Assembly: GCA_048939995.1 (NCBI GenBank)
Contig: JBHLOY010000002.1
Coordinates: 369,402-433,401, forward strand
DNA: 64,000 nucleotides
Reading direction: 5' to 3'
Origin: Promethearchaeota archaeon
GTDB lineage: Archaea > Asgardarchaeota > Lokiarchaeia > Sigyniarchaeales > SOKP01
A program made the position numbers and the translations under genes. Shown here one piece after another: positions 7,306-55,149 of this stretch. Every line of letters starts with the position of its first letter. Position 1 is the stretch's first letter. The notes below the pieces were generated by a model. That model had not been told where the DNA came from and searched no databases. It was given only the letters and a program-made list of their open reading frames with translations.

Positions 7306-9027
7306 GGCGTAGGCATCTTGGACAGCATAATTGTTAAAGTTGATGCTATAATGATCCCTCCAGCTATGGCGCACATCATCTAACATCTCCTCCATGAGGC
7401 TCTCCTTAAGCTTACCTTCTGCTCGAAGTAAATTCCCCATCGGTGATGCTGTAATCTCTCCGTCTTTCACCACAATTATTCCATCCTTAATTGTATATGC
7501 CGTCGAGCTAAATGCCTTCTCAATATCATGCCCAGTATAATTGTTAGGATCAATCTTATACACTGCCACGTCTCCAATAGCGCCCACACCGAGATGACCG
7601 CGATCTTTCATTCCCAGAATCTTCGAAGTTCCAGCGCGGGTTACCACAGCCAGTTCATAAAGCGAATATTCCCTGTCGATGTCTGCCAACGTAGACGCCG
7701 TGCTTGCTTTCTTATGGACCACATTTTTGAGCATGTCATCTCGAGTTTTCCTATCCATCAACCATTTGAAGGCCATCGGATACGTGGTAAACGGGGCTCC
7801 ATTTGGATGGTCGGTCGTAAATCCGATTTGAAAAGGATCCTTTACCAAAAGCATAAGCTCAAGACCAATTGCCCATTGAACCGCATTTACGCTATTTTTT
7901 GCATCAAAAAAATACGGAACTATCCCTGATCCTGATTCTGCTTCAACTTGGCCGTTAACCCACTTAATACCCGGCTTAGATCCCCAACCTGAAAAACCAC
8001 CTAAATGATGGAGAGCAAACTCTCATGCACAGACAAGATGCTCGTCTGTGACCCATGGTCCGTCTCCAGTCATCGTAGTGGTCGCATATTTAGTGAATAC
8101 TACTTGACCGTTATCAATCGTAAGATGCTTATGTGAATTCACATACTCAGCAATTTCTACGGCACCAGAAGTAAAGTCATTCCAATTAGTGCCTCCATAT
8201 GCATTAAATTGACAATGAGTCACATGAAGACTTGTTGTTCGGCTATCACCAGCCTTGATTTTCTCACAGACTTGAAAGGTTTCGAGAGAATGCTTGAAAT
8301 TGCCGGGATGTCCGAGATTGTTGCAATGGACATGAATTGAATGTGGTAATTTCAGAATCTCGTTAACCTTCGCTAGACTCTCAATAATCTGACGAGGAGT
8401 TACATTCCAATGGAAAACAGGATCATTTAAAGATTCACAATTCTTGCCCCAAGCCCAATTTTCAACCCCCCCAGGATTTACAATTTTTATAGCATAGCCT
8501 TTGGTTGCTTGGAGGATCCAATTGACGTATGCGGCGAGCTTATCGATGTCGTTGTCGCGTATATATTTCAGGACGAACCAATTATTTCCATAGATGGGGA
8601 GGGCAGCTTTATCGATGATTGGCATTTCGAGGAATTCTTCATGGGTATGTCGAGCTTCGAGGAGAGGCATTGCGGGTTCGACAGCGGTTGTATAGCCCAT
8701 TTGGGCATATTTATAACCTGTATACCAAGTGCTAAGCACGCTGAACCCGGTACCGGATCGTGTAGTTTTAGTTTTCTTTAGGTTCGATTCGGGCACCTTG
8801 TCTTCAGGTCGTAAAGCTCGTCCGACATTGACTTTAGGTCCAGCAATGTGAGTGTGCATATCAACTCCACCAGGCATTACGACCATTCCAGAAGCATCGA
8901 TTACTTTTGCGTCAGAGTTAACTTTTTCGGCGATAAGTCCATCTTTTATATAGATATCTTTCTTTTCGCCATCGATCTTATTGAGCGGGTCATATACCAA
9001 TCCATTTTTAATGATTAAGTTGCTCAT
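7276..9027 (-). CDS. fwdA: Formylmethanofuran dehydrogenase subunit A-like amidohydrolase, interrupted by a single in-frame TGA at 8023..8025
   Basis: The N-terminal part carries IKNGLVYDPLNKIDGEKKDIYIKDGLI and VIDASGMVVMPGGVDMHTHIAGPKVNVGR. ORFs 8023..9027 and 7276..7854 are in the same frame. I translated the 168-nt gap codon by codon and found no other stop. Confidence 0.85.
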
Positions 9028-14669: not shown

Positions 14670-15466
14670 TTGGTGAATTTAATGGATGATAAAGAAGTTG
14701 CCAAATACTGGGATGAAAATGCTAATAATTGGACTAAATTAGCACGGATGGGTTATGATATTTATCGAAATTATGTGAATACTCCTGAATTTTTTAAAAT
14801 CCTACCAAATATTTCTGGAAAAAAAGGCATCGATATTGGTTGTGGAGAAGGATATAACACTCGAATTGCGAGTAATCGGGGTGCTCGAATGGTAGGTATA
14901 GATATTTCCAAAATATTTATCGAAAAAGCAATTGAGGAGGAAAAGAAACATCCTCTCGGTATTGAATATAAGGTGGCAAGTGCTTCAGACTTACCCTTTG
15001 ATAATAATGAATTTTGTTTCGTAATATCTACCATGACGTTTATGGATTTATCCCAATTAGATAAAGCGTTAAAAAGGTGTACAGGATTATGAAAGATGAG
15101 GGCTTTTTTCAATTTTCTATTCTTCATCCATGTTATTCTACACCAATCAGAGAATGGATGAAAGATAACGAAGGCAATAAAAAGGGCTTAATGTGCGGAG
15201 ATTATTTCAATGAATTAGAAGTTAGTATTGAGGAATGGATTTTTAGTGCTGCTCCAATAGATTTAGTAAAAGATATGAACAAATTTAGAGTTCCTAGATT
15301 CCATAGAACGCTAAGTACATGGTTTAATACTCTAATTGATATTGGATTTAAGTTAGAAAAACTACATGAGCCTCAAGCACATAAAGAAGCGCTTGAAAAG
15401 GATCCACATCTAATTGATTGTAATATTGTAGCAAATTTCCTTATAATAAGATGTCGTAAGCTATAA
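14670..15466 (+). pseudogene. Class I SAM-dependent methyltransferase split by a frameshift in an A5 run (15071..15075)
   Basis: Motif I is GIDIGCGEGY. ORFs 14670..15092 and 15077..15466 overlap in different frames. One extra A would give ..LDKALKKVYRIMKDEGFFQFSILHP. Confidence 0.75.
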
Positions 15467-20052: not shown

Positions 20053-22452
20053 TCAATTTTGTTTTAAAAATTTGAATAAACCTCCAATCAGTTGACCTGT
20101 ACTAATGCCAGCATCTCCGGGAGGAATATTATCATGTTCCAAGAAGGTATAACCTTTTTCTTCAATAAAATTCTTAATAGTATTTGAAAAAGAATAATTA
20201 TATGCTACTCCACCAGATAATCCAATTTTATCAACTTTATATTCTGAAGCAATCTTTACGGCCAATTCTGCAAATTTTTCTGCAAATTTTATTTGAAAAG
20301 CGGCAGCAATATCACTTGTTGAATTTAGTTTATTAAACTTTAATTTAATTATTTGTAAAATTAAATCAGAAGAATCAATTATATAAACCCCGTTCGTTTT
20401 AGTATATTTAATTTCAAGATCTATATTTTCTGCATTTCCTTGGCTTGCTAAACCCTCCAATCTCATAGCAGGTTCTCCTCTATAAGTTTTTATTGTTGAA
20501 GCTCCTAAAATATATGATACACAATCAAATATTCTACCAGCTGAACTTGTAAGTGGAATATTTTGACTAGGAAATTGGTTATTTACCTCTTTAAATTGAG
20601 AGATCATCGTTTCTAATTCTTGGTCCTTATATTCGAGATCATTCTTTAAATTTAGACCCTTAAAGAGATTAAAAGCTTCTTCAAGTTCTATTGTATTTAA
20701 TAGAATTGATGCCACCATTCTTGCGGGGTATTTTGTACAACGATCTGCTCCAATCATCGGCTGATATTGAAGATGCCCTAATCTTATATAATCAACGTAA
20801 TCACATAATAATATTTCACCGCCCCAAACGTTACCATCATCTCCATAACCAACACCATCAACACTTATTCCAACTATACGTTCACTTCTCTCCACTTCAT
20901 TCTCAGCCATTAATCCTAATATGTGAGCAAAGTGATGCTGAATATTATACAGCTGAACCTCATAAAGAGAAGCTAATTCTTTACCTAATCTAGTAGAGAC
21001 AAAAGCTGGGTGAACGTCACAACAAATAAAATCAATTTCAGAATCTTTTATCTGCAGCAAGTTTTTCATATGGAAGATAGCATCTTTTAAAAATTCATAT
21101 GTCTCTAAGTTTGTAGTATTTCCAATGTGTTGAGTGGGAAAAATTCGATTTCTCCGCAAGATAGCTCCTGTTGTTGTAAGTTCAGGGCCAGTTGCTATGG
21201 CTCCTTGGATCTCTACTTGAAATGGTAAGGGTAGATATTCTGGGACATACCCTCTTGATCTTCTAATTAATTTTATTTTATTATTATGAATTCTTAATAC
21301 ACTATCATCGGCCCTTTGAAAAATAGGGCGATTATGAAGCAAAAAGATATCTGCTAAATCCTGAAGTTGGTCAAATATTACCTCGTTATCTATTCCCATT
21401 GGAATATTTGATTTATTTCCACTAGTATAAACTAATGGTTTTTCACCTATATAATCAAACAATAAGTAATGTATTCCTGAATAGGGTAACATTACACCAA
21501 CATTATTTAAACCTGGAGCTACCTCCTCACTTATTCTAAAATTCTTAAAGAGGTTATTCCTCTCTAATAATACTATAGGTCTTCTAAATGACTCAAGAAG
21601 TTCTCTTTCTTCTTCTGAGATTTTGAATTCTTGTTCTATTGAATTAAGATTTGGTACCATTATAGCAAAAGGTTTATATTTCCGATCCCCCTTCCTGTTT
21701 CTAAGGTTTAATAAAATATCATCTTCAGTTAAACAGACGAGGTGAACACCTCCAATTCCTTTAATTGCCGCAATTCCACCTTCATTTATTCTGCCAGCAG
21801 TTTTAAGTAAAGTTTCTTCAATTGAATTTGTAGGTATTTTATTTTTATTTTTATCATACAATGCATAGTTAGGGCCACATACGGAACAGGCAAAGGTTTG
21901 AGCATGAAATCGCCGATTATAAAAGGACGTGTATTCTTTAATACATGATTGGGGCTCAGCAATTTGACAAAGTGGAAATTTATTCATGGTAGTTCTCTCC
22001 CTATCATAAGGTAAAGCTTGAACAGTCGTAAACCTTGGTCCGCAACTTGCACATGCTATGAAAGGATAATTGAAATACTTCTTTAAATCTTTATTTCTCA
22101 TATCTTTAATGCAGTCTGCACATGTCGCTATGTCTGGTGGAAGAGTTAAGCTAATTCCACGACCCTCTTCACTTTTAATGATTTTAAGGGTGTTATACTT
22201 AATATTCGTTTGAATTTCCTTGCTATTTAAGTTCTCAATGTAAGCTATAGCCGGTTTAGAGAGTTGGATTCTATTAACAAATAATTTAATTTTATCGGAA
22301 TTCCCTTGAATAACTAATCGAACTCCAGCATTTCCCCTATTTAAAATAATTCCATTAAGATCATAATCCTTTGCTAAGTTAAATAAAAAAGGACGGAAGC
22401 CTACTCCTTGAACAATTCCCGTTATATTGATCTCTACAGTTTTCTCGGTCAT
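20053..22452 (-). CDS. hypF: [NiFe]-hydrogenase maturation carbamoyltransferase HypF
   Basis: 799 aa: an acylphosphatase-like N-terminus (ITGIVQGVGFRPF), two CxxC zinc-finger pairs, and YrdC-like and Kae1-like domains. Confidence 0.95.
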   Translation of the reverse strand: MTEKTVEINITGIVQGVGFRPFLFNLAKDYDLNGIILNRGNAGVRLVIQGNSDKIKLFVNRIQLSKPAIAYIENLNSKEIQTNIKYNTLKIIKSEEGRGISLTLPPDIATCADCIKDMRNKDLKKYFNYPFIACASCGPRFTTVQALPYDRERTTMNKFPLCQIAEPQSCIKEYTSFYNRRFHAQTFACSVCGPNYALYDKNKNKIPTNSIEETLLKTAGRINEGGIAAIKGIGGVHLVCLTEDDILLNLRNRKGDRKYKPFAIMVPNLNSIEQEFKISEEERELLESFRRPIVLLERNNLFKNFRISEEVAPGLNNVGVMLPYSGIHYLLFDYIGEKPLVYTSGNKSNIPMGIDNEVIFDQLQDLADIFLLHNRPIFQRADDSVLRIHNNKIKLIRRSRGYVPEYLPLPFQVEIQGAIATGPELTTTGAILRRNRIFPTQHIGNTTNLETYEFLKDAIFHMKNLLQIKDSEIDFICCDVHPAFVSTRLGKELASLYEVQLYNIQHHFAHILGLMAENEVERSERIVGISVDGVGYGDDGNVWGGEILLCDYVDYIRLGHLQYQPMIGADRCTKYPARMVASILLNTIELEEAFNLFKGLNLKNDLEYKDQELETMISQFKEVNNQFPSQNIPLTSSAGRIFDCVSYILGASTIKTYRGEPAMRLEGLASQGNAENIDLEIKYTKTNGVYIIDSSDLILQIIKLKFNKLNSTSDIAAAFQIKFAEKFAELAVKIASEYKVDKIGLSGGVAYNYSFSNTIKNFIEEKGYTFLEHDNIPPGDAGISTGQLIGGLFKFLKQN

Positions 22453-22475
22453 CCGACTAGTTTATTCTCCAAAAC

Positions 22476-23570
22476 TTATTCTTGATAATATTTATAATAA
22501 ATTGAGCAAGTACCTTCGCTAGAGACCATACAAGGTCCTACTGGATAGAGAGGAGTGCATTCCTTTCTAAAGAGTTTGCATTCATAAGGAGAAAGTTTAC
22601 CAACCATTACTAAATGACAAGAGCAACCTGGAGGAATGTCTTGAGACTTCTTTATTTTGATATCGAACTTCTTATCTGCATTATACTCCTCAAATTTATC
22701 TCGAATGACTAATCCTCCATCAAGAACCCTCCCAATTCCTCGCCAAGGAGATGAAACTGATTCAAAGACTTCCTTAATAATCTTCTGAGCGACTAGATTT
22801 CCTTCAGGTTTCACAACCCTGGAGTATTCATTAAGTGTTGCATAATTTTTCTCTTCTATCTGTTTTAACAACATTAAAATAGCTAATAAAACATCATTTG
22901 GTTCGAATCCAGCAATAACATTTGGTACTTTATATGCATCAGAAAAAATTTTAAAGGGCTGCAAGCCGATAATCGTGGAAACATGTCCAGGAGATATAAA
23001 ACCATCTATATTTAGTTTAGATTGACTAATTAATAGCTCTAAAGCAGCAGGAATCAACTTATGGGCACAGATCACTGAAAAATTTGAAGGGGGTTTAGCT
23101 TGTATTTCATATCCAGTTAAAGGAACCGTCGTTTCAAACCCAATAGCAAAGAATACAATTTCTTTATTCGGATTATTTTGTGCTATTTTAACCGCATCAT
23201 GTGGTCCATAAATAATACGCACATCTGCTCCTTGAGATTTTAATTCAGCTAGAGAAATATTAGTAGCAGGTACTCTAATCATATCTCCAAAAGTGGTAAT
23301 AATAACCTCATCTCTTTTACCTAATTCAATAGCTTTATCGATATCTGCTGCTGGACAAACACAAACTGGACATCCAGGACCAGAAACTACTTCAATTTCC
23401 TTAGGTAGTAGTGTTCTTAAACCATATTTAGAGATAGTATGTTCGTGTGTGCCGCACACATGCATTATCTTGACATTTCTGTCCAAAGCATCACATATTT
23501 TTTTAATAGAACTGACAAGCTTCTCGGCAAATACATTGCTTTTTAAAAATTTCGTTCCAGGAATTTCCAT
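22476..23570 (-). CDS. hypD: Hydrogenase maturation protein HypD
   Basis: Contains HVCGTHEH, GPGCPVCV, and PGHVS plus C-terminal Cys motifs. Confidence 0.95.
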   Translation of the reverse strand: MEIPGTKFLKSNVFAEKLVSSIKKICDALDRNVKIMHVCGTHEHTISKYGLRTLLPKEIEVVSGPGCPVCVCPAADIDKAIELGKRDEVIITTFGDMIRVPATNISLAELKSQGADVRIIYGPHDAVKIAQNNPNKEIVFFAIGFETTVPLTGYEIQAKPPSNFSVICAHKLIPAALELLISQSKLNIDGFISPGHVSTIIGLQPFKIFSDAYKVPNVIAGFEPNDVLLAILMLLKQIEEKNYATLNEYSRVVKPEGNLVAQKIIKEVFESVSSPWRGIGRVLDGGLVIRDKFEEYNADKKFDIKIKKSQDIPPGCSCHLVMVGKLSPYECKLFRKECTPLYPVGPCMVSSEGTCSIYYKYYQE

Positions 23571-23604
23571 AATTATAATTAAAATAATTAATTAAACATT
23601 TTAT

Positions 23605-24657
23605 TCAACAAATCCGAGGAATCACTTCACCTACTGGCATTTCGATGAATCTAGTTCCTCCAACTAATGTTTTGAGTAAAACTTTCTTATTATTTTCAGC
23701 TATTACCTCTCCAATAATATTTGCATCTTTTCCAATTTTTGTAGATTTTATTTTTTGAAGAATATTTTCTGCTTGATTAGGATCAACAGATAATAAAGCT
23801 CTACCTTCAGATGCAATATTGAAAGGGTCCAATCCAAGCATTTCGCATACAGCAAATACTTGCTTTTTAATTGGAATGCTATCTTCATCTAACATAATAC
23901 CGATGTTGGATTTCATAGCCCAATCATTCAAAGCAGCAGCTATTCCACCTCTGGTTGGATCTTTCATCGCATGAATATAGTTGTTATTTATATCTGGTTT
24001 TAAGACATCGTAAACCTCTAATAAGGTATTAACATCTGATTCTAAATCTGAAGAAATATTTAGGCCTTCTCGACTTGAGATTAATGCAGTTCCGTGATCT
24101 CCAATTGAACCAGTTATAATAATTTTATCTTTTGGCTGCAAATTATTATCCAAAATTTTAATATGTTTGGCTTTAATTCCTATTCCCGTAATAGCCATAA
24201 TTAATTCATTTAATGTACCACGGGGCATAATTTTTGTATCTCCCGCTATAATAGCGATATTAGCTTCTCTTGCTTTATAATTAAATGAATTGATAATCTT
24301 TTCTAATAAATCGAATTTTAGCCCTTCCTCGATTATAATGATAGAAGTAATGGCTAGAGGCTGGGCACCCATCATTAATAAATCATTAACAGTGCCACAA
24401 ACACTTAAAATTCCTAAATTACCGCCAGGAAAAAATAGAGGGTACACAGTGTAACCGTCTGAGGTTACTACAATTTCTTTATCGTAATCCTCTAATGGAA
24501 TCGTAGCTCCGTCATCTAGCTCCTCCACTCCTATTCCTTTATTAACATTTTTATAGGTTATGTTATTAGTAATAAAATTAATTAACTCTTCTTGAAGTAA
24601 ACCTCCGGATCCATGAGCAAGACGAATGACACTGGAGCTTACTTTTTTCATACTCAT
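23605..24657 (-). CDS. hypE: Hydrogenase maturation protein HypE
   Basis: PurM/AIR-synthase-like fold with the conserved C-terminal ..PRIC. Confidence 0.95.
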   Translation of the reverse strand: MSMKKVSSSVIRLAHGSGGLLQEELINFITNNITYKNVNKGIGVEELDDGATIPLEDYDKEIVVTSDGYTVYPLFFPGGNLGILSVCGTVNDLLMMGAQPLAITSIIIIEEGLKFDLLEKIINSFNYKAREANIAIIAGDTKIMPRGTLNELIMAITGIGIKAKHIKILDNNLQPKDKIIITGSIGDHGTALISSREGLNISSDLESDVNTLLEVYDVLKPDINNNYIHAMKDPTRGGIAAALNDWAMKSNIGIMLDEDSIPIKKQVFAVCEMLGLDPFNIASEGRALLSVDPNQAENILQKIKSTKIGKDANIIGEVIAENNKKVLLKTLVGGTRFIEMPVGEVIPRIC

Positions 24658-26098: not shown

Positions 26099-26443
26099 AT
26101 GATTTTAATTATGATTTCACCTAATAAGCATTCTGAAAGAGAAAGGTTTACTGTCCAGACAATGATAAAAATGTATTGTAAAAAATTTCATGATCATAAT
26201 AGTGAATTTTGTGTTGAATGTTCTGAACTTCTTGAATATGCTGAAGAAAGGTTAAAGTATTGTCAATTTGGTAAAGATAAACCAACTTGTAGGAAATGTC
26301 CTATTCATTGTTATAAACCCCTCATGAGAGAAAAGATACAAAAAGTCATGCGATATTCTGGTCCTCGCATGATATATTCACATCCATTAATGGGAATTCG
26401 CTATCTTTTTAAAAAATTTAAGCATATTGAAGAACTAGATTAG
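26099..26443 (+). CDS. Nitrous oxide-stimulated promoter (YgbA_NO) family Cys-rich protein
   Basis: Shows the pattern MYCKKFH..FCVECSELLEYAEERLKYCQFGKDKPTCRKCPIHCYKP typical of that family. Confidence 0.7.
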   Translation: MILIMISPNKHSERERFTVQTMIKMYCKKFHDHNSEFCVECSELLEYAEERLKYCQFGKDKPTCRKCPIHCYKPLMREKIQKVMRYSGPRMIYSHPLMGIRYLFKKFKHIEELD

Positions 26444-27822
26444 CTGTTATCTTTATAGTTTTTATGACCTAAAATACTGTCAGCAAAAGTGAATCTATTG
26501 AATAATCCGACTGGATCCTTAATAAATTTTAAAATTTCTTCAGGATCACGCTCAGAAAATAAGGACCCTAATGTGCTTATGAATTTTATACCTTGATCAT
26601 CAACACCAACTGGAGGTCCATAACATCCCAAACAAGGGGCATTTCCTTTATTAGGACAGATAGTGCCACATCCTGCTTGAGTAACTAAACCTAAACATAT
26701 ATAACCTTGCTCTAAGAAACACTTATCTGTTGTAGGTAATCCTTCATAATCTCTTTTTAAGTTAGTAGGAACTTTATCAACTATAATTCGATCGCAATGG
26801 CTACAAACTGTTTTAGAGCTAAATTTGAAATTGGGATCATTTTTCAGTTGAAGAATTATCGAGCTAATTATATTATCGTTTATTTCAATTCCCGTTGGTC
26901 TTAAATCTAATTCTTTGTTTTCCCCACTCTCTATTTCATTAAAGCTTTCAGGTTCATATGCCAAACGTTGCACTAAATCATCATAAAAGTAGAAATTTGT
27001 GATACTAGCGGATCCTAAATACAATATCAGGAAGTGCAGAAAGTTTGTTCGTGTTTCCTCATTCAATTGATCTAAACTCATAATTAATTCTAGTAGATTC
27101 TCTGCTTTCTCTCCGGGAATTTTTGTATGTCTAAAGCAACCGAAACAAATCTCACCTTTATTTGGGCACATTAATTTGCATCCTCCGGCAGTAATCGATC
27201 CATAACATAATGTACTATTATCTAAAAAGCATCCATTATTAAACAAATCGCAATTGTCGCAGACACATCTACTTTGATTTTGTTGATTAGAACGGTCTCT
27301 AATAAAAGATTTTAAGTGCAACATTGTTGCAACAATATTTTCAGTTTTTGGGGGGCAACCTGGGACAAATATGTCCACATGAATAAGATCTTTAACGTTA
27401 TAAACATATTTCTCAATATTTGGTAAATCATTATTTTTTACATGAATTTGTTCTTCTATTGATGCTTTATTTCTTAGAAGCTCGTTTTTTTCCAAATCAT
27501 CTTTATCAATTAGATTGGCTAATCCGGGAATGCTTCCATAACATGCACAAGCTCCTAGAGATACTATAATATCACTCATTTCTCTTAATGTCTTGACATT
27601 AGCAGTATCTTGTTCCGTCCTTATAATTCCCTCTATAATTCCAACCTTAAAATTTCCATTCTCTTTAATATTATTTTGAGCATTGTTTCCCGGCCAAAAA
27701 ATGAAATCTATCTCAGGAAGAATAGGTAATAACTCAAAGTGTGCATTTAAGAGACTCTGATGACAACCCCAGCAAGAACTAAGCTGTAGATAATATACAG
27801 ATAAAGCCATTTTTAAAAACAA
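26440..27822 (-). CDS. Group 3 [NiFe]-hydrogenase small-subunit paralog (MvhG/FrhG-like) with extended Cys-rich C-terminal half; no adjacent large subunit
   Basis: Proximal-cluster ligands CWGC, GACACYG and PGCPP, followed by two Cys-rich modules. It is colinear with 49575..50888. Confidence 0.75.
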   Translation of the reverse strand: MFLKMALSVYYLQLSSCWGCHQSLLNAHFELLPILPEIDFIFWPGNNAQNNIKENGNFKVGIIEGIIRTEQDTANVKTLREMSDIIVSLGACACYGSIPGLANLIDKDDLEKNELLRNKASIEEQIHVKNNDLPNIEKYVYNVKDLIHVDIFVPGCPPKTENIVATMLHLKSFIRDRSNQQNQSRCVCDNCDLFNNGCFLDNSTLCYGSITAGGCKLMCPNKGEICFGCFRHTKIPGEKAENLLELIMSLDQLNEETRTNFLHFLILYLGSASITNFYFYDDLVQRLAYEPESFNEIESGENKELDLRPTGIEINDNIISSIILQLKNDPNFKFSSKTVCSHCDRIIVDKVPTNLKRDYEGLPTTDKCFLEQGYICLGLVTQAGCGTICPNKGNAPCLGCYGPPVGVDDQGIKFISTLGSLFSERDPEEILKFIKDPVGLFNRFTFADSILGHKNYKDNS

Positions 27823-28427: not shown

Positions 28428-29024
28428 TTGGAGAAGAGTACAAAAATGATCGAATCTGAACCAGAAATTATTAAAGTTTTCACAGAAGATTTAGCTGATT
28501 CCTTAAAGAATGCAGGATATCCCCAGATTGATGCATGTATTCAATGTGGAACTTGTTCTGGAGGATGTCCATCAGGAAGAAGGACAGCACTAAAAGTTAG
28601 GACAATCATAAGAAAAGTCCAATTAGGAATTGAAGAAATTCTTAACACCAATGATATTTGGTATTGTTCAACTTGTTATACTTGCCTTGAAAGATGTCCC
28701 CGTAAATTACCTATAACAGATATGCTTATTTATTTGAGAAATCTGGCAGTTCAGAAAGGTTTCATACTTGAGAGTCATCTTGATTTATGTAAGAAACTTT
28801 ATAATTCAGGTCATGGAGTTCCTATAGACGATGATAAATGGAAAAAGTTAAGAAAAGCTTACGGTTTAAAACAAATTCCACCAACTGTCCACTCTAATCA
28901 AAAAGATCTAGAAGAAATCCAAATACTTCTCCATAGTGCTAAATTTGATGAATTAGTAAATCTCAAGTCTGAAAAAGATGAGGAGAACGAAGAAGAAAGA
29001 TATTATATTACTAATACCATGTAA
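28428..29024 (+). CDS. hdrC: Heterodisulfide reductase subunit C
   Basis: Two 4Fe-4S motifs (CIQCGTCSGGCP and CSTCYTCLERCP), directly upstream of hdrB. The true start may be the ATG at 28446. Confidence 0.85.
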   Translation: MEKSTKMIESEPEIIKVFTEDLADSLKNAGYPQIDACIQCGTCSGGCPSGRRTALKVRTIIRKVQLGIEEILNTNDIWYCSTCYTCLERCPRKLPITDMLIYLRNLAVQKGFILESHLDLCKKLYNSGHGVPIDDDKWKKLRKAYGLKQIPPTVHSNQKDLEEIQILLHSAKFDELVNLKSEKDEENEEERYYITNTM

Positions 29025-29038
29025 AAGGTCATATAAGG

Positions 29039-29995
29039 ATGGGGGTAAATCGAAAATATTCACTTTTCCTTGGATGTGTTATTCCAAATCGATATCCCTT
29101 TATTGAATTAGCGACTCGTAAAGTATTTCAAAAATTGGGTATCGAATTTGTTGAAATGGATGGGGCATCTTGTTGTCCAGCTCCGGGGGTATTTCGTGGA
29201 TTTGATATAGATACTTGGTTAATTGTTGGAGCTAGAAATTTAACTATTGCTGAACAAAACAAACTTGACCTCGCTACGATGTGTAATGGTTGCTACGGAA
29301 GTCTACTTGAGGTGAATCACCAATTAAAAACTAATAAACAAAAATTAGAGATGGTTAACGAACATCTTGCTAAAATTAATCGAGAATATCACGGAAGTGT
29401 AAATGTAAAACATATCATCGAAATTCTTTATAAGGATATAGGAATTGAAAAATTAAAGAATAGAGTTAAATATGGTCGTAAGAAAGCATTAGACTTAAAC
29501 GTGGCAGTCCATTATGGTTGTCATATTCAAAAACCAGCTAGTATTCGACCATGGGGTAATGAAACAGAAAAACCGCGATTTTTAGACGAATTAGTAGAAA
29601 TTACAGGTTGTAGAAGTATAGATTATAGAGATAAAAATATGTGTTGTGGTGCAGCTGGAGCTGTCAGAAGTGCCTTTAAAGAAGTTTCATTAGATTTTAC
29701 TAGGGAGAAGTTAGAAAACATGAGGGCAGCTGGAGCAGAAGTTATCGTTACTGCTTGCCCTTTTTGTCATCTCCAATTCGATTTAGGTCAAATTGAAATT
29801 AATAATATATTTAAAGAAAAGATCGAAGCTCCTTTTAATATTCCTGTTATTTACTATACACAATTATTAGGTCTCGCGTTAGGTTTAAACCCTGAAGATG
29901 TTGGATTAGTAAGGGATATAGAATTGAAAGGAGTACCTCCATTCACATCGATTAAACCATTTTTAGAAAGAGTGAGTGATGAAGTTGAAGGATGA
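29039..29995 (+). CDS. hdrB: Heterodisulfide reductase subunit B
   Basis: Two CCG domains (ASCCPAPG, MCCGAAG, CPFCH). Confidence 0.9.
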   Translation: MGVNRKYSLFLGCVIPNRYPFIELATRKVFQKLGIEFVEMDGASCCPAPGVFRGFDIDTWLIVGARNLTIAEQNKLDLATMCNGCYGSLLEVNHQLKTNKQKLEMVNEHLAKINREYHGSVNVKHIIEILYKDIGIEKLKNRVKYGRKKALDLNVAVHYGCHIQKPASIRPWGNETEKPRFLDELVEITGCRSIDYRDKNMCCGAAGAVRSAFKEVSLDFTREKLENMRAAGAEVIVTACPFCHLQFDLGQIEINNIFKEKIEAPFNIPVIYYTQLLGLALGLNPEDVGLVRDIELKGVPPFTSIKPFLERVSDEVEG

Positions 29996-31958
29996 GCAGA
30001 AAGTAGGTGTGTTTATTTGTCACTGTGGTAATAATATCGCAGGTGTAATAGATGTAGAGAAACTGACCGATTATGCCAAAACTTTACCTAATGTAAATGT
30101 AGCGGAAAATTATAAATTTATGTGTTCAGAAATCGGTCAAGGATTAATTCAAGAAAAAATTGAAAATGGTGAAATTGATCGCGTAATAGTAGCGGCTTGT
30201 TCACCCCGAATGCATGAATCAACTTTTAAAAAAGTTTGTGAAGATGCTGGCTTAAATCAATATTTATGCGAGATAGCAAATATTCGTGAGCAATGTAGTT
30301 GGGTAAATATGAATGATCCTAAAGGAGCTTATGAAATTGCTAAAGCACATGTTAGGATGGGTGTAGCTAAAGTTAATCAACTAAAAGCTTTGGAGAAATT
30401 TTATGTTGATGTTGAACCTGCATGCTTAGTTGTAGGCGGAGGGATAGCAGGTATGAATGCTTCGTTAGATCTTGCCAATTTTGGTTATAAAGTTTATTTA
30501 GTTGAAAAAACTCCTACAATAGGTGGCCATATGGCACAACTAGATAAAACATTTCCAACGTTAGATTGTTCATCATGTGTTATTACACCTAAGATGTCTG
30601 AAGTAGCCAAAGCTAAAAATATTGAATTATTAACCTATTCTGAAGTTTCTGAAATTTCGGGGTACATAGGTAATTTTAATGTTAAAATAAAAAAATATCC
30701 TCACTATATTGACCAAGAAAAATGTACTGGGTGTGGAAGTTGTGCGGAGTCATGCATTGCCATAAGTCCAAATGAATTCGATATTGGTATGAAAAAAAGA
30801 AAGGCTGCATATATCCCTTTTCCTCAGGCAGTTCCAGGAAAATATACAATTGATATGGAGCATTGCATAAAATGTGGAATATGCGCTGAAATATGTCCTG
30901 TTGGAGCAGTTAATTATGATGATAAAGTAGAATATGAAGAAGTAAAAGTAGGAGCAATAGTATTAGCAACTGGCTTTGACACATATGATCCAACAATATT
31001 AACTCAATATGGATATGGGAGTTATCCAAATGTTATTACTGGACTCCAAATGGAAAGATTATTAAGTTCTTTTGGTCCGACTGGTGGCAAAATCGAAAGA
31101 CCATCAGATTTAAAAGAACCATCAACAATTGTTTTCCTACAATGTGTAGGTAGCAGAGATTTTACTGAAAAAGGAAATAAATACTGCTCTAGAGTGTGTT
31201 GCATGTATTCAGTAAAACAAGCTCGTCTTTATAAAGAGAAGCATCCAGATTCCAAAGTTTATATTTTTTATATTGACATCCGTGCATTTGGAAAAGGTTA
31301 TGAAGAATTCTATGATTCCACTGCAAGAGATTTTCATATAAAGTATATAAGAGGAAGAATTTCTGAAGTACTTGAAGATAAAGATCATAATATTATTATT
31401 CGTGGAGAAGATACTCTCCTTCAAAGGTTAATTGAAATTAAAGCAGATTTACTAGTTTTAGCCGTGGGACTAGAACCGCGCGTAGATTCAAATGAAGTTG
31501 CACACTTATTTAATGTTCAGAAATCAGAGGATGGATTTTTAATGGAAGCACATCCAAAATTACGTCCAGTAGAAACCCTTACAGATGGGATATTCATTGC
31601 TGGAACAGCTCAAGGTCCTAAAGATATTCCTGACACTGTTGCACAAGCTAAAGCTGCTGCTGTAGAAGCAGCTTTATTAATTAATAAAGGAAAAGTTGAG
31701 ATTGATCCGATTTTTTCAATTGTATTAAGCCATAAATGCACTGGTTGCAAAAGTTGTTTGAGTTTATGTCCTTATAATGCAATTTCATTTGATGAATTTA
31801 AAAGAATTGCTGAAATTAATAAGGTTTTGTGCAAGGGATGTGGTACTTGTGTTGCTGCTTGCCCAAGTTCTGCGATTATACAAAATCAATTTGGAGATGT
31901 ACAATTATTACCAATGATCCATACCGCTATTCAAAAACCAGATGAGGTGGAGGGTTGA
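29976..31958 (+). CDS. hdrA: Heterodisulfide reductase subunit A (Cys form)
   Basis: 660 aa with VGVFICHCGNNI, an FAD-binding GGGIAGM motif, and ferredoxin motifs CTGCGSCAESC, CIKCGICAEICP, CTGCKSCLSLCP and CKGCGTCVAACP. There is no in-frame stop. Confidence 0.95.
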   Translation: MMKLKDEQKVGVFICHCGNNIAGVIDVEKLTDYAKTLPNVNVAENYKFMCSEIGQGLIQEKIENGEIDRVIVAACSPRMHESTFKKVCEDAGLNQYLCEIANIREQCSWVNMNDPKGAYEIAKAHVRMGVAKVNQLKALEKFYVDVEPACLVVGGGIAGMNASLDLANFGYKVYLVEKTPTIGGHMAQLDKTFPTLDCSSCVITPKMSEVAKAKNIELLTYSEVSEISGYIGNFNVKIKKYPHYIDQEKCTGCGSCAESCIAISPNEFDIGMKKRKAAYIPFPQAVPGKYTIDMEHCIKCGICAEICPVGAVNYDDKVEYEEVKVGAIVLATGFDTYDPTILTQYGYGSYPNVITGLQMERLLSSFGPTGGKIERPSDLKEPSTIVFLQCVGSRDFTEKGNKYCSRVCCMYSVKQARLYKEKHPDSKVYIFYIDIRAFGKGYEEFYDSTARDFHIKYIRGRISEVLEDKDHNIIIRGEDTLLQRLIEIKADLLVLAVGLEPRVDSNEVAHLFNVQKSEDGFLMEAHPKLRPVETLTDGIFIAGTAQGPKDIPDTVAQAKAAAVEAALLINKGKVEIDPIFSIVLSHKCTGCKSCLSLCPYNAISFDEFKRIAEINKVLCKGCGTCVAACPSSAIIQNQFGDVQLLPMIHTAIQKPDEVEG

Positions 31959-32389
31959 TTATCATGACAGAAGTTTCCTCTTTTGATCCATCAATTTTAG
32001 GTATTTTTTGTCATTGGTGTTCATATGCAGGAGCAGATCAAGCAGGAACATCACGAATGCAGAGATATGCTAGTCTAAGAATTTTACGTGTGATGTGCGG
32101 AGGAAGGATTGACCCTAATTTTGTGGTTACTGCCTTAAAAGATGGAGTAGATGGCGTTTTAATTTCACATTGTCATCTCGGAGATTGTCATTACGTTACA
32201 GGAAATCATAAAACTGCAAGAAAAATACCATTACTTACGAAATATTTAAAACAATTGGGAATTAACCCAAAGAGAATTAAGTATGTCTTTGTTTCTGCAT
32301 CTGAGGGAAGTAAACTTACGAATATTGTTAATGAATTTGTAGAAGAATTAAAAGAATTAGGTCCTAATCCATTAAAAAAATCGGATTAA
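31955..32389 (+). CDS. mvhD: MvhD-type hydrogenase delta subunit (FlpD/MvhD family)
   Basis: Contains FCHWCSYAGADQAG, RVMCGGRIDP and CHLGDCHY. The ATG at 31964 is the more likely start. Confidence 0.9.
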   Translation: MIIMTEVSSFDPSILGIFCHWCSYAGADQAGTSRMQRYASLRILRVMCGGRIDPNFVVTALKDGVDGVLISHCHLGDCHYVTGNHKTARKIPLLTKYLKQLGINPKRIKYVFVSASEGSKLTNIVNEFVEELKELGPNPLKKSD

Positions 32390-32425
32390 CTTTATAAAGA
32401 AATAATATGTTAGGTTGAGCGAAAA

Positions 32426-33100
32426 TTGTATCCAAGAGTTAAAGAAATTCAGACAAATAAATTCAATGAATCAATTTTAAATTTTTATACTGAAAATTAT
32501 ACGATTAAGATTGATAAGGAGAGATGCATTGGATGTGGAATTTGTATTAAAGTCTGTCCTAATAATGCTATTCCTGCTCAAGATCTAGAAGGAAAAGTAC
32601 GAATTAAGACTGAGAATCTTGTGCCAGGCACACCGAATGCGCTTAAATGTTCATATTGTGGGACTTGCATGTATATGTGTCCTTTAACAGCAATATCTTT
32701 AAAACATAATAGAAAATTGATAAATAAAGAAGATCTGGGGATCGTAAAAAATAAGGTGGTTCCAGAATTAGATTTTAAATCGATTAACTCTGATAAATTT
32801 CAGAAAGAGATTAAAGTATACTTTGATGGTAAAATATCTATTGATTGGGATAAATGCATTTCATGCATGTCATGTGTGGATGTCTGTCCAGTTGAAGCTT
32901 TTTTTAAATCTAACACTCAGGATGGCAAAGATGAAAAAAGAAAAAGAGTTTCATTTAATCAAGATGCATGCATAAATTGTGGTACCTGTGTTAGAGCTTG
33001 TTCAGTCAAAGCTATAAGTTTAAAAGATCGTGCATTAAACTTTTCTGGGGATTTTAAAAAGATATTTTGGGAAGCTTTATTAACACGTATCAAAACTTGA
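32426..33100 (+). CDS. Polyferredoxin with four 4Fe-4S motifs
   Basis: Motifs are CIGCGICIKVCP, CSYCGTCMYMCP, CISCMSCVDVCP and CINCGTCVRAC. Confidence 0.8.
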   Translation: MYPRVKEIQTNKFNESILNFYTENYTIKIDKERCIGCGICIKVCPNNAIPAQDLEGKVRIKTENLVPGTPNALKCSYCGTCMYMCPLTAISLKHNRKLINKEDLGIVKNKVVPELDFKSINSDKFQKEIKVYFDGKISIDWDKCISCMSCVDVCPVEAFFKSNTQDGKDEKRKRVSFNQDACINCGTCVRACSVKAISLKDRALNFSGDFKKIFWEALLTRIKT

Positions 33101-48530: not shown

Positions 48531-48540
48531 TCTCTAATAT

Positions 48541-48570
48541 CTTGGTTTAAGTTTAAAAATTAAACCAAGA
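48541..48570. promoter_or_regulatory. 10-bp perfect inverted repeat CTTGGTTTAA-N10-TTAAACCAAG
   Basis: Read directly from the sequence. The spacer itself is a GTTTAAAAAT box. Confidence 0.35.
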
Positions 48571-48804
48571 TTTTGAGTGATTCTAGACTTAATAGTCAAA
48601 AACTTCTATTTAAATATCTTTTTTATAATTTATTTAAAATTAAAAAGGAATTAAGCTTAAAGTCAATTTTTTAATCAAATTGATTACAATAACTAAATTA
48701 ATCAAATTTCTAATTTTGTATAAAAATTCAAATTTTTTATAATCGACAAATTTTAAAAAGTGGAAATAAAGAATATATTAAATATATTTTATTATTGAAG
48801 AATT

Positions 48805-50891: not shown

Positions 50892-52196
50892 ATGACAAAA
50901 GAAATAGATGTAGAGCCTGTAACTCGATTAGAAGGGCATGGAGGGTTGCGATTGGTTTTAGGAGATGATGGAACAGTACAAGATGTGCAATTTAACATCA
51001 CATCGACAAGATTTTTTGAGAAATTTTTAGAAGGTCGTTACTGCGAGCATATAAACCGGATTACGCCTCGGATTTGTGGAATTTGTCCCATTCCTCATCA
51101 TTTATCACCAACGAAAGCTGTAGAAGATGCTTGGGGTGTTGAAATTCCCACACCAGCCTTAAAATTACGAAAGTTGCTCATTAATGCAAAGCAATACTCC
51201 TCTCATGCTTTACATTTCTATGCATTGGCAGCACCAGATTTCTTATTAGGACCTATGGCAGATCCTGCATTAAGAAATGTGGTTCATGTAATCAATAAAA
51301 TGCCAGATGTTGGAGCTATGGCTCTAAAAATGATGGATTTTGGTCAAAAATTATGCGCGGCTATTGGGGGTAAGTCTGTGCATCCTATTTCAGCTATTGT
51401 TGGTGGGATGAAAAAAGCAATGGATGAAGATGCTCGAGATTTATTCTTAAAGCAAATTGGAGATCAAGTTGAATGGACGAAAAAGACAGTAGATATCGGA
51501 TTGAAAGTTGTCGAGGATTACTGGGATGTTGTTGCAAACGTAGGAGTTGTACCTACATACTATGCTGGGATGACTAAAAATGGAGTTCATGATATTTATG
51601 AAGGAGATCTTAGGATTGTATCTCCTGATGGACAGAAATTTGATTATCCGCCTCAAAAATATTTAGAGGTATTAGGTGAATATATTCCTGAACATTCATA
51701 TGCTACCCATATGTATTACAAGCCTGCTGGATACCCTGAAGGGATTTATCGGGCGAATACATTGGCTATGATTAATGCCGCTGATAGAATGGCAACTCCT
51801 TTAGCTGATGAAGCATTAAGGGCAATGAGAGATAAGGTTGGTGCTATTTCGCATCACACATTTGCTTATCATTGGGCAAGATTAATTGAATTAGTAGAAT
51901 CTATTGAGATGATTGCTACATTACTTCAAGATCCAGATATACTCAATCCAGATTGTAAAACATTAGATGTACAACCTAGAGAGGCTGACGGAGTCGGTTT
52001 AGTAGAAGCACCTCGTGGTCTATTACTATATCATATTTGGTCAGATGCTGATGGTCTATGTAAAAAGGCTAACCTTTTAGTAGCTACCAATCATAATATT
52101 GCAGGAATTGAAAAAACTTTAAAATTCGTAGCGAAGCAAGTATTTGAACAAAACGCTTTGGCCGGATTAAAATTACCAGACCCTTGGATAAAATAA
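50892..52196 (+). CDS. vhuA: [NiFe(Se)]-hydrogenase large subunit lacking the C-terminal Ni-ligand motif (VhuA-like)
   Basis: N-terminal RLEGHG and RICGICPIPHH motifs. The ORF ends ..LKLPDPWIK without any DPCxxCxxH motif. Confidence 0.9.
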   Translation: MTKEIDVEPVTRLEGHGGLRLVLGDDGTVQDVQFNITSTRFFEKFLEGRYCEHINRITPRICGICPIPHHLSPTKAVEDAWGVEIPTPALKLRKLLINAKQYSSHALHFYALAAPDFLLGPMADPALRNVVHVINKMPDVGAMALKMMDFGQKLCAAIGGKSVHPISAIVGGMKKAMDEDARDLFLKQIGDQVEWTKKTVDIGLKVVEDYWDVVANVGVVPTYYAGMTKNGVHDIYEGDLRIVSPDGQKFDYPPQKYLEVLGEYIPEHSYATHMYYKPAGYPEGIYRANTLAMINAADRMATPLADEALRAMRDKVGAISHHTFAYHWARLIELVESIEMIATLLQDPDILNPDCKTLDVQPREADGVGLVEAPRGLLLYHIWSDADGLCKKANLLVATNHNIAGIEKTLKFVAKQVFEQNALAGLKLPDPWIK

Positions 52197-52228
52197 AATT
52201 AAAAAGATATAAAGGCGATATAAAAGAA

Positions 52229-52381
52229 ATGAGTGAAGAAATACCAGAAGGAGTAGTAAATCTTTTAGAAATGGTAGTTCGCTGTTTTGATTGCTGACTA
52301 TCGTGTGCCGCACACATCACCGTTGTTGATGAAAAAGGCTCTGAGATTTACTCTCGCGAGTTAAATGTTGGCTTAGGATGA
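52229..52381 (+). CDS. vhuU: VhuU-like selenopeptide: separately encoded C-terminal Ni-ligand segment of the large subunit, Sec codon TGA at 52295..52297
   Basis: Own translation: MSEEIPEGVVNLLEMVVRCFDC-U-LSCAAHITVVDEKGSEIYSRELNVGLG. It aligns with the E-M-V-I-R-x-Y-D-P-C-L-S-C-A-T-H large-subunit C-terminus, and the TGA falls at the first Cys position. Confidence 0.8.
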
Positions 52382-52438
52382 ATATCCAATATAAACAATA
52401 GATTGGATACAACTGCCCATGCACGGGTTAAAGCCAAC
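52367..52438 (+). ncRNA. Candidate SECIS-like stem-loop overlapping the vhuU stop codon and 3' UTR
   Basis: Outer stem GTTGGCTT (52367..52374) pairs with AAGCCAAC (52431..52438). Inner stem TATCCAAT (52383..52390) pairs with ATTGGATA (52402..52409), enclosing an 11-nt loop. A GAA lies 5' of the inner stem. This is the only GC-enriched patch in the spacer. Confidence 0.3.
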
Positions 52439-52475
52439 CAAAATATAAAATAAAAAAGAAAGAAGAAACGGAATA

Positions 52476-53003
52476 GTGAAAAAAATGACTATAAATTTTG
52501 AATTTAGAAAGCAAGTTATGGATTACCATATAGGGTCTGATTTAATAAAATATTGTTACCAATGTAGCAGATGTGCTGATAACTGTCCAGTCACCAAAGT
52601 GACAACAGATTTCTATTCGACAACGGGGTATAATCCACGTAGTAATATCCTAAATGCTCTATTGGGGTATAAGGATGTTATATTTTCAGCTGATCCCTTA
52701 ACTATTTGGGGATGTACTGTATGTGACACTTGTGACGAAGTTTGTCCTCAGAAAATTGAGCTTACTGAAATCTTTACATTCTTAAAAAATGAATCGGTAG
52801 AGCAAGGTAAAGCTCCTGAACATATATATGCTCAAGCACAAACAATCTTTGAAAATGCTAAAGCAATTCCACCACAACCTGCAATTGAGAGAAGAAGAGA
52901 ACAATTAGGATTACCTACAATAATAACACCAGACATAAATGAGCTCCAAACATTATTAAGAAATATAGGAGCAGATAAAAAACTTACTAAGAGGGAGGAT
53001 TAA
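52476..53003 (+). CDS. hdrC: Heterodisulfide reductase subunit C (second copy)
   Basis: Contains CYQCSRCADNCP and CTVCDTCDEVCP. The ATG at 52485 is a possible start. Confidence 0.85.
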   Translation: MKKMTINFEFRKQVMDYHIGSDLIKYCYQCSRCADNCPVTKVTTDFYSTTGYNPRSNILNALLGYKDVIFSADPLTIWGCTVCDTCDEVCPQKIELTEIFTFLKNESVEQGKAPEHIYAQAQTIFENAKAIPPQPAIERRREQLGLPTIITPDINELQTLLRNIGADKKLTKRED

Positions 53004-53861
53004 ATGACAGAATATAAGATGTTTGAAGGTTGTACTATAGGGAATCGTATTCCCTTTATAGAAGCTGCTTCGAGAAAAGTGTTTCAAAAAGTAGGAATTG
53101 AAACTTCTGAGGCGCCATTTAGTTGCTGTCCAGATCCCACAGGGATGAAAAGTTTTGATAATGATTCATGGTTAGTTATTGGAGCTCGAAACCTTAGTCT
53201 TGCTGAAGCTGAAGGTAAGAATATTATATCTTTATGTAATGGATGCGCGAATACTCTCAGAGGAGTACAACATCAATTGAAACATGATTCCTTAAAACGA
53301 CAAAAAGTTAATAAACAGTTAGCTAAAATTGGTAAAAGTTATCATGGTAACATAGATATAAAGCATTTTGTTGATGTATTAAAAGATAATCTTGATAAAG
53401 TTAGAGAATCAATTACAAAACCATTAAGCGGGTTAAAAGTAGCTGTTCATCCTGGTTGTCATTACATGAGACCAGCAGAGTGGATGGAGAATGATGATCC
53501 AATGCATCCGCAAAACCTAAAGAAAGTAGTTGCTGCTACTGGTGCAACTGTTGTAGATTATGAAGAGTTAGCTTTATGCTGTGGTTCAGCTGTTACTAAT
53601 GCTTACGAAGAGCATGGTTTAGCAAATCTAAAAATTAAAATGGATAGTATTAAAAAAGCTGGAGCAGATGTAATTTGTGTTAATTGTCCTTCGTGTTTTC
53701 AGCAATTTGATACCCGTCAAAGAGATTTAGGTAAAAAATATGAATCTGAGTACGATATACCAGTGTTATATATAACTGAATTGTTAGCTTTAGCAATGGG
53801 AATCACTCCTGAAGAAATAGGGCTTAAGTTTCATAGAACTCGAATGAAGACCCAAATATAG
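53004..53861 (+). CDS. hdrB: Heterodisulfide reductase subunit B (second copy)
   Basis: CCG-domain motifs FSCCPDP, LCCGSA and CPSCFQQ. Colinear with 29039..29995. Confidence 0.9.
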   Translation: MTEYKMFEGCTIGNRIPFIEAASRKVFQKVGIETSEAPFSCCPDPTGMKSFDNDSWLVIGARNLSLAEAEGKNIISLCNGCANTLRGVQHQLKHDSLKRQKVNKQLAKIGKSYHGNIDIKHFVDVLKDNLDKVRESITKPLSGLKVAVHPGCHYMRPAEWMENDDPMHPQNLKKVVAATGATVVDYEELALCCGSAVTNAYEEHGLANLKIKMDSIKKAGADVICVNCPSCFQQFDTRQRDLGKKYESEYDIPVLYITELLALAMGITPEEIGLKFHRTRMKTQI

Positions 53862-54900: not shown

Positions 54901-55149
54901 ATGTGTCTAGCAATTCCTGGAAAAATAATAAAATTCAATGAAGATAGAACAACTGCACAAGTCGATTTTGATGGAATAATTCAAAGTGTAGTTATAGCCT
55001 TAATTTCAGATCCTAAAGTTGGAAATTATGTGATCGTACATGCAGGATATGCGATCGAACAAATGAATGAAAATGAAGCTTTAGAAGCAATTGAACAATG
55101 GAAAGAAATAGCTGAGGATCAGGATTTAAATCTATCTGATATGTTATAA
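54901..55149 (+). CDS. hypC: Hydrogenase maturation chaperone HypC
   Basis: N-terminal MCLAIPGKI and an 82-aa OB-fold size. Confidence 0.9.
   Translation: MCLAIPGKIIKFNEDRTTAQVDFDGIIQSVVIALISDPKVGNYVIVHAGYAIEQMNENEALEAIEQWKEIAEDQDLNLSDML

Follow-up and report, generated by a model that had tools for sequence, protein, structure and literature searches.

Evidence for a hidden selenocysteine peptide gene completing a split [NiFeSe] hydrogenase large subunit in a Lokiarchaeial genome, with a candidate intron in fwdA of the same stretch

The DNA analysed here, a stretch of 64,000 nucleotides (nt) from contig JBHLOY010000002.1 of a Promethearchaeota archaeon (hereafter the window; G+C content about 31%), carries vhuA, a gene for the large subunit of a [NiFe] hydrogenase. 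Its product contains PRICGICPIPHH and ends in ...LPDPWIK directly before a TAA stop, and it has no D-P-C-x-x-C-x-x-H block. The ATG at 52229, which lies 32 nt past the vhuA stop, opens a short open reading frame (ORF), vhuU, which in frame 1 reads MSEEIPEGVVNLLEMVVRCFDC up to an internal TGA (52295..52297), continues with LSCAAHITVVDEKGSEIYSRELNVGLG and closes at a second TGA (52379..52381). The peptide segment right after the internal TGA begins LSCAAHITVV and ends GLG. A sequence-only reading of this DNA had proposed a hidden gene at this point, with an in-frame TGA for selenocysteine (Sec) after a truncated large subunit; the letters are as it described them and translation confirms the ORF. 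The end of vhuU overlaps an RNA element of the kind called lokiSECIS (SECIS, selenocysteine insertion sequence), and the pair vhuA-vhuU stands between a small-subunit gene and genes resembling hdrC and hdrB (Table 1).

Table 1. Coordinates of the features discussed, given as positions in the window.
Feature	Position	Strand	Basis
vhuG-like [NiFe] hydrogenase small subunit, 437 amino acids	49575..50888	+	Pfam Oxidored_q6; best NCBIfam VhuG NF045875, E 8e-64
vhuA, large subunit without C-terminal Ni-ligand motif, 434 amino acids	50892..52196	+	NCBIfam, PDB, homologue lengths
vhuU, unannotated 49-codon selenopeptide precursor gene, predicted Sec at codon 23	52229..52381	+	translation, NCBIfam, PDB 9sfi_M, 76 related loci
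motif C19-F-D-C22-U23-L-S-C26-A-A-H29 (RC[FY]DC[U/C]LSCAAH)	52283..52315	+	codon counts, Cys-type homologues, solved relatives
in-frame UGA, predicted Sec23, at the terminal Ni ligand position	52295..52297	+	TGA in 77/77 loci; codon constraint; alignment with 9sfi_M and MvhA
21-residue C-terminal extension following His29	52316..52378	+	relaxed protein constraint; 9sfi VhuU chain end; L054
SECIS lower helix (helix I), 5' strand GUUGGCUU, the Val-Gly-Leu codons of vhuU	52367..52374	+	pairs with 52431..52438; covariation, RNAalifold
SECIS core AUGA, its UGA being the vhuU stop	52378..52381	+	AUGA in 71/73 sequences
SECIS helix II (9 positions, 52382-90 with 52402-10) and 11-nt apical loop AUAAACAAUAG (52391-52401)	52382..52410	+	covariation; published lokiSECIS
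AAC, 3' side of SECIS core (GA/AA partner of AUGA)	52411..52413	+	AAC n=35, GAC n=38 of 73
third G+C-rich hairpin GCCC-AUGCAC-GGGU, between core and helix I 3' strand	52415..52428	+	all 73 sequences
SECIS lower helix (helix I), 3' strand AAGCCAAC	52431..52438	+	covariation, RNAalifold, covariance model R1
hdrC-like gene	52485..53003 (ATG start of public annotation; ORF opens at GTG 52476)	+	NCBIfam CoB_CoM_SS_C, E 1e-21; L081 gene call
hdrB-like gene	53004..53861	+	NCBIfam CoB_CoM_SS_B, E 3e-79; Pfam CCG
hypC, [NiFe] maturation chaperone	54901..55149	+	Pfam HupF_HypC, E 2e-23
hypF, hypD, hypE	20053..24657	-	
lone second VhuG-like small-subunit gene, 460 amino acids, without adjoining large subunit	26440..27822	-	
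second cluster hdrC-hdrB-hdrA-mvhD/vhuD-polyferredoxin	28428..33100	+	
fwdA (formylmethanofuran dehydrogenase subunit A), interrupted by in-frame TGA 8025..8023	9027..7276	-	
30-nt in-frame, stop-containing insert in fwdA (motif spans about 8068..8009)	8051..8022	-	homologue comparison, fold

Profile and structure matches place the two ORFs in one family. The best NCBIfam model for VhuA is NF041785 (VhuA; E 4.2e-137, 457 bits, residues 4-418 against positions 3-417 of 418), and for the vhuU peptide, with U written as C, it is NF041786 (VhuU; E 1.7e-14, 53 bits, residues 4-40 against positions 2-38 of 45). The closest solved structure is that of 9sfi/9t1s: the 418-residue chain 9sfi_g matches VhuA from end to end (E 1.7e-120), and the 27-residue VhuU chain 9sfi_M (..LIEIVLRAYDPXYSCAAHM) aligns to vhuU residues 5-30 with its X, which stands for Sec, on the UGA. 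When the fused MvhA (5odc, 9sw2) is used instead, VhuA aligns to residues 3-417 and the vhuU peptide to residues 423-452 (..EMVIRAYDPCLSCATH), the UGA falling on the first Cys of DPCLSCATH, i.e. the first Cys of DPCxxCxxH. Because the two products align to two consecutive parts of MvhA, the two ORFs together represent one complete group-3c large subunit. The split into VhuA and a VhuU-like peptide, as the sequence-only reading had it, is thus upheld by the model matches and by the same two-chain arrangement in 9sfi, and its placing of the TGA at the first Ni-coordinating Cys, the Sec position, agrees with the alignments to 9sfi_M and MvhA. All Promethearchaeota (Lokiarchaeota) VhuA homologues, from genomes and metagenomes, are 434-435 amino acids long.

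The locus was compared with 80 genome loci in which VhuA is 81-94% identical to that of the window. The vhuU ORF is present in 76 of these, which together with the window gives 77 copies; among the remaining four, L042, L077 and L078 end within about 130 nt of vhuA, and L059, which extends about 1.2 kb downstream of vhuA, has no match to the vhuU motif pattern. The Sec codon is TGA in every copy, including that of L081, a separately assembled contig (GCA_048938825.1) that is 99.96% identical over 4.6 kb; the Cys codons TGC and TGT, which the earlier reading had named as the observation that would speak against Sec, occur at this place in none. The codon before it (Cys22) is TGT in 49 loci, TGC in 27 and TTC in one, and the Asp codon preceding Cys22 alternates between GAC and GAT. 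Counted with the window as reference, codons +1 to +8 (LSCAAHIT) hold 234 synonymous and 3 non-synonymous changes, with 234 changes at third positions and 6 at first and second positions, and the C-terminal extension holds 322 synonymous and 266 non-synonymous changes. Judged from these codon counts, the frame past the UGA is under strong purifying selection, so that the UGA is read through.

The position of vhuU varies among the relatives. In seven of them (L008, L052, L057, L067, L070, L075 and L079) it lies about 1.5 kb from vhuA; the order vhuA-hdrC-hdrB-vhuU is seen in L008 (5371-6958), and for the other six it follows from spacing alone. The displacement behind hdrCB suggests that vhuU, together with its SECIS, is able to change place as a unit of its own. 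It also bears on whether the locus is simply decayed, i.e. whether a full-length large-subunit gene gained stops, so that the TGA is a nonsense mutation in a dead enzyme, as the public annotation of L081, which calls no gene between vhuA and hdrC, and the change of the usual DPC motif to DCU might be taken to indicate. An independent gene behind hdrCB in seven loci is not what such decay would leave, nor is the same split with the same TGA in all 77 loci across that range of VhuA identity, the near lack of non-synonymous changes beyond the TGA, or the occurrence of the same two chains in solved Vhu structures; the divergence among the related loci excludes copies of one contaminating sequence. 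The conservation data thus rule out the decayed locus that the sequence-only reading had weighed against itself, and we give this explanation next to no credence.

Could the UGA, through near-cognate suppression or a code change across the whole genome, be decoded as an ordinary amino acid such as Trp, Cys or Gly? Database ORF calls of vhuU (P0241-P0260, P0273 and P0275) have W at both TGAs and continue beyond the true stop, and the Sec machinery is not in the window, both of which could be cited for such decoding. The W calls, however, arise where genes on Asgard contigs are called with genetic code 4 or 25, which hides the selenoprotein, and TGA is the normal stop of 13 of the 43 Pfam-supported ORFs in the window, which argues for site-specific recoding and not for a changed code. 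A standard amino acid is further opposed by the UGA at the Sec position of an experimentally characterised VhuU (the X of 9sfi_M), by the conserved, covarying SECIS after vhuU and by the Sec machinery documented for the clade (PMC4989117, PMC11227280), and we consider it very unlikely. Real Cys-type stand-alone homologues of vhuU do exist (P0261, P0266-P0270).

The peptide beyond His29 is under weaker constraint than the motif, and the VhuU chain of 9sfi ends one residue beyond the His of the motif; by analogy, the 21-residue tail would presumably be cleaved by a maturation endopeptidase. In one relative (L054, 5345-5449) the extension has a premature stop (..ITVVDE*) and the downstream codons and SECIS are kept as nucleotides, a pattern that fits an extension dispensable as protein and constrained as RNA. 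This premature stop, the relaxed protein constraint on the extension and the doubling of the ORF end as helix I of the SECIS would all suit a model in which translation ends at the UGA and the downstream sequence is kept as RNA only, e.g. as a regulatory structure for hdrCB. Such a model does not account for the strongest codon constraint lying directly after the UGA, in the LSCAAHIT codons, which are outside the RNA structure and hold the indispensable Cys and His ligands, and it would leave VhuA with no C-terminal Ni ligands; it strikes us as extremely improbable.

The element that follows the Sec codon corresponds to a published type. Mariotti et al. (2016, PMC4989117) define the lokiSECIS as a stem of 9 bp with AUGA on its 5' side and GA, or AA in VhuU, on its 3' side. 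The apical loop above the stem has 11 nt, is A-rich over the first five and closes with G, in most cases after an A; in VhuU.1 the AUGA provides the stop. The text of Huang et al. (2024, PMC11227280) gives AUGA_AA cores for Lokiarchaeial frhA genes. The element of the window begins 81 nt past the Sec codon, overlaps the vhuU stop, and agrees with this definition in its flanks, its stem and loop geometry, its position at the ORF end and its covariation. A recoding signal, for which the sequence-only reading had suggested a search, is thus present in the form of a lokiSECIS.

All statistics on the element refer to an alignment of 73 sequences. The apical loop has 11 nt in 58, starts with AAAAA in 68 and ends with AG in 57. 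Helix II is paired in 96% of cells, and six of its nine pairs have compensatory double changes. Below the AUGA core lies a further helix of 8 bp (helix I), the 5' strand of which is coding; 98% of its cells are paired and two of the eight pairs have double changes, one alternating between U-A and A-U (double change in 18 sequences) and another between C-G and U-A (30 sequences), so that synonymous third-position changes in vhuU codons are mirrored in the non-coding strand. RNAalifold independently predicts this helix, and a minimum-free-energy fold of the 3' untranslated region alone misses it because the 5' strand is within the ORF. The third hairpin, inside helix I beside the AUGA hairpin, contains three G-C pairs between flanks of (G/A)ACU and UUA, and has 92% of cells paired with no double change in any of the 73 sequences. 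The euryarchaeal SECIS, which has two stems parted by a GAA_A internal bulge and three G-C pairs in the upper one, is not matched by the element, as such a bulge is absent. Over the whole element 96% of cells are paired, compared with 24-50% when the partners are slid, eight pairs have double changes, and the covariation score was reached by none of 500 shuffles.

A covariance model built on the element (R1) scores 97.9 bits at 52363..52446, and the next best match in the window has 18.7 bits. That second match (E 0.015) is an A+T-rich palindrome at 48533..48577, found on both strands upstream of an AsnC-type regulator gene, and probably reflects chance or a hairpin of the terminator kind. The R1 search thus finds a single lokiSECIS in the window, in agreement with the rejection of four lokiSECIS-like hairpins from a pattern scan, at 12497, 43254 and 53145 (+) and 57780 (-), whose loops deviate from the type in length or at their ends and which are not preceded by an ORF containing UGA. 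A SNORD93 match from Rfam (E 9.6) was dismissed as chance.

Several observations weigh against a Sec-encoding vhuU at this locus. The window itself has an A.C mismatch at the base of helix II, at a pair that is A-U in 51 of the 73 sequences, leaving eight standard pairs where most relatives have nine. No Rfam SECIS model matches, either at the gathering score over the whole window or at E up to 10 in 52150..52600; this null result agrees with the remark of the lokiSECIS authors, in their running text, that standard SECIS tools fail on it (PMC4989117). Neither protein reaches the NCBIfam equivalog cut-off (457 against 800 bits for NF041785, 53 against 70 bits for NF041786), and by these scores the window proteins count as relatives, not equivalogs, of those in Methanococcales; the cut-offs are tuned to Methanococcales proteins, and the vhuU peptide was scored with Cys replacing Sec. 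Genes for tRNA-Sec, SelB/EFSec, PSTK, SepSecS and SelD were not found within the 64-kb window, in which ARAGORN finds no tRNA at all and hence no tRNA-Sec. The HdrA (660 amino acids, DCSSC, ending in TGA) and VhuD of the second hdr cluster are uninterrupted Cys forms, and were accordingly rejected as Sec proteins. The running text of the Asgard selenoprotein literature reports no biochemical demonstration of Sec insertion in an Asgard archaeon.

Taken with the evidence above, we consider it highly probable that this locus of a Lokiarchaeial (Promethearchaeota) genome codes for the split large subunit of a group-3c (Mvh/Vhu-type) [NiFeSe] hydrogenase, with a Sec-containing VhuU. We infer Sec insertion at the UGA, cleavage of the peptide and the physiological partner. 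VhuA would supply the N-terminal Ni ligands (RICGIC) and vhuU the C-terminal ones, with the UGA at 52295-52297 recoded to Sec23 as the terminal Ni ligand, Cys26 as the bridging ligand and His29 closing the motif; the 21-residue tail would probably be clipped after metal insertion by the Hyp system. The eukaryote-like lokiSECIS would direct the recoding, and the stop UGA within the AUGA core would presumably escape recoding through its position within the element. An electron-bifurcating complex of the hydrogenase:heterodisulfide-reductase type is indicated by the operon vhuG-vhuA-vhuU-hdrC-hdrB.

Both the vhuU gene and the lokiSECIS of Lokiarchaeota are already published (PMC4989117; PMC11227280). 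According to the running text of Mariotti et al. (2016), VhuU is among five Loki selenoprotein families and occurs together with the Sec machinery, and that of Huang et al. (2024) puts Sec use at 85.9% of Lokiarchaeia/Helarchaeales genomes and the FrhA/MvhA/VhuU-type hydrogenase alpha-subunit selenoprotein family at 68.3% of Sec-utilizing Asgard genomes. The earlier reading, too, had stated that Sec usage has been reported in Lokiarchaeota. As far as that text describes it, VhuU.1 of Lokiarchaeum is likewise encoded by some 50 codons with a single Sec, and its RNA element has AUGA, a stem of 9 bp, an A-rich loop of 11 nt with G at the end, and AA or GA after the stem; the AUGA doubles as the stop, as in the window, VhuA, VhuG, HdrB and HdrC are present, and nothing essential differs. 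The VhuA of the window is 86-87% identical to LCGC14 proteins, which indicates another species. The lower helix, the third hairpin and the Pro-to-Cys change described below are not mentioned in the running text of the lokiSECIS literature (figures and the Mariotti supplements aside), and these three features, the last as RC[FY]DC[U/C], are refinements and not a new kind of system.

Further afield, the closest parallel is in Methanococcales, whose VhuA and VhuU share the split site, the Sec at the first C-terminal ligand, processing after the His and the association with Hdr genes. There the motif is RAYDPUYSCAAH, compared with RCFDCULSCAAH in the window, the SECIS is of the euryarchaeal GAA_A type, unlike the eukaryote-like AUGA/kink-turn type seen here, and VhuA lacks 16 C-terminal residues that the window protein has. 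The VhuU of M. voltae was reportedly described by Halboth & Klein in 1992 and by Sorgenfrei et al. in 1993. MvhA of the Methanothermobacter/Methanothermococcus Mvh-Hdr complexes (5odc, 9sw2) belongs to the same group 3c, with the same partners and C-terminal block, but is a single fused polypeptide of about 472 residues that has Cys where VhuU has Sec and lacks a recoding signal. The bacterial periplasmic HysA (5jsu, 2wpn) has Sec at the same place, as terminal ligand of the Ni-Fe site instead of Cys; that enzyme is fused, belongs to group 1 and has only distant similarity (E about 1e-25, N-terminal part only). In bacteria the SECIS is part of the coding sequence and directly follows the UGA.

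The published picture is unchanged by these results. Standard gene callers miss vhuU or mistranslate its UGA as Trp, and an Asgard Mvh/Vhu hydrogenase therefore looks truncated and inactive in automated annotations. The element of the window adds a further well-supported case of a eukaryote-like recoding signal in archaea, and the 73-sequence covariation evidence for the lower helix and the third hairpin could guide mutagenesis.

The residue before Sec is Cys in place of the usual Pro, as the sequence-only reading had pointed out, and this is a real, clade-wide feature present in 76 of the 77 loci. The block RC[FY]DC-U-LSCAAH can be written C19-x-x-C22-U23-x-x-C26, in which both extra Cys are conserved in 76 of 77 copies, and Cys22 is spelled with both Cys codons across the clade. 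The stand-alone Cys-type homologues (P0261, P0266-P0270) retain RCYDCCLSCAAH, and DPC or DPX is seen in all solved relatives in the alignments. In a 2026 review, NF041786 appears with the motif UxxC. Among 1.84 billion representative proteins searched, the position of Cys22 is taken by C, N, L or P in other stand-alone peptides resembling VhuU, which suggests that the Pro position is generally relaxed in split forms and speaks against a special role of Cys22, an idea weakened by this search. One could picture the RNA element as a three-way 'k-junction', made of a lower helix from the last three to four vhuU codons, a eukaryote-like AUGA hairpin and a G+C-rich hairpin recalling the euryarchaeal SECIS upper stem, and so a physical intermediate between both SECIS types, with the clade-specific C-x-x-C-U block forming a selenenylsulfide/disulfide switch that protects or gates the Ni-Fe-Se site. 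We regard this combined proposal as doubtful.

The more unusual item in the window is an insert in fwdA. The gene is interrupted by a short in-frame, stop-containing sequence that is absent from all 120 best homologues, which are uninterrupted and nearly all 571-578 amino acids long (outliers of 545 and 594); comparison with the closest of the FwdA homologues (84% identity) reveals it as ...GDGPW[VTDEHLVCA*]EFALHH..., the insert being bracketed. The minimum-free-energy fold of 8070..8008 (-) is a canonical bulge-helix-bulge (-27.8 kcal/mol, z = -3.8) with an 11-bp outer helix of exon sequence, a 4-bp central helix CAUG/CAUG, a 10-bp inner helix and two 3-nt bulges, GGU and AGA, on opposite strands. 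A cut after the second base of each bulge would remove 8051..8022 and join CCA UGG GAG UUU (PWEF), as in the homologues. The same insert is found in the Logan assembly of run SRR24270828 (L082).

Two further cases emerged among 78 metagenome loci. At the same fwdA codon position, L111 (1277-1306 of Ga0307419_10001720) has a different 30-nt stop-containing insert with the same fold, in which the central helix is CUUG/CAAG, the bulges are GGC and AAA, and the inner helix is CUUAUGCGA/UCGCAUAAG; relative to the insert of the window, the central and inner helices differ by compensatory changes. Its predicted spliced junction equals the sequence of an intron-less near-relative, L103. Identity between these two loci drops from 99.5% upstream of the insert to 88.9% downstream, a step for which a tract of recombination or co-conversion and a chimeric assembly are possible causes. 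In L143 (about 897-925 of Ga0315284_10009554) a 29-nt frame-breaking insert occupies another fwdA site (..WAWGK|NCES..). The motif is a relaxed one: besides a 3-nt bulge (AAU), a GGGG/CCCU central helix and an inner hairpin, it has its 3' site in a 12-nt loop. Predicted splicing restores GKNC, as in L123.

We propose the fwdA insert as a candidate for an mRNA intron spliced by the archaeal splicing endonuclease; any single copy of it may possibly mark a pseudogene. A loose bulge-helix-bulge scan of the window gives about 55 weak matches and no statistical support for the insert, and the case for it therefore rests on the comparison with homologues. Asgard archaea are reported to have an (alpha-beta)2 splicing endonuclease with a loop that gives a broad substrate range (PMC5829648), and protein-gene introns of the bulge-helix-bulge type have a precedent in cbf5 of Crenarchaeota (PMC2738675); no report of such introns in Asgard protein genes was found in the literature searched. 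The insert also turned up in a scan of the window for ORF pairs joined by a single TGA, as the pair at 8025. The other joined pairs, at 8134, 5076 and 35576, are short, and a pair at 44858/45590 was rejected as two separate ABC-transporter genes.

Elsewhere in the window, hydrogenase-related genes comprise the hyp genes, a lone second small-subunit gene and a second hdr cluster (Table 1). An ORF of the AIRS family at 23605..24657 was considered as SelD and proved to be HypE. The VhuG-like protein of 437 residues encoded beside vhuA is about 150 residues longer than the 286-position VhuG model, and so is the second one of 460 residues; both match the model in separate stretches, which suggests that their extra length is a clade-specific insertion. 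A class I methyltransferase gene is split into the overlapping ORFs 14670..15092 and 15077..15466 at a run of five A at 15071..15075 (+), where one added A would yield ..LDKALKKVYRIMKDEGFF.. without a break in frame. The homopolymer indel stems either from a sequencing or assembly error or from a real frameshift.

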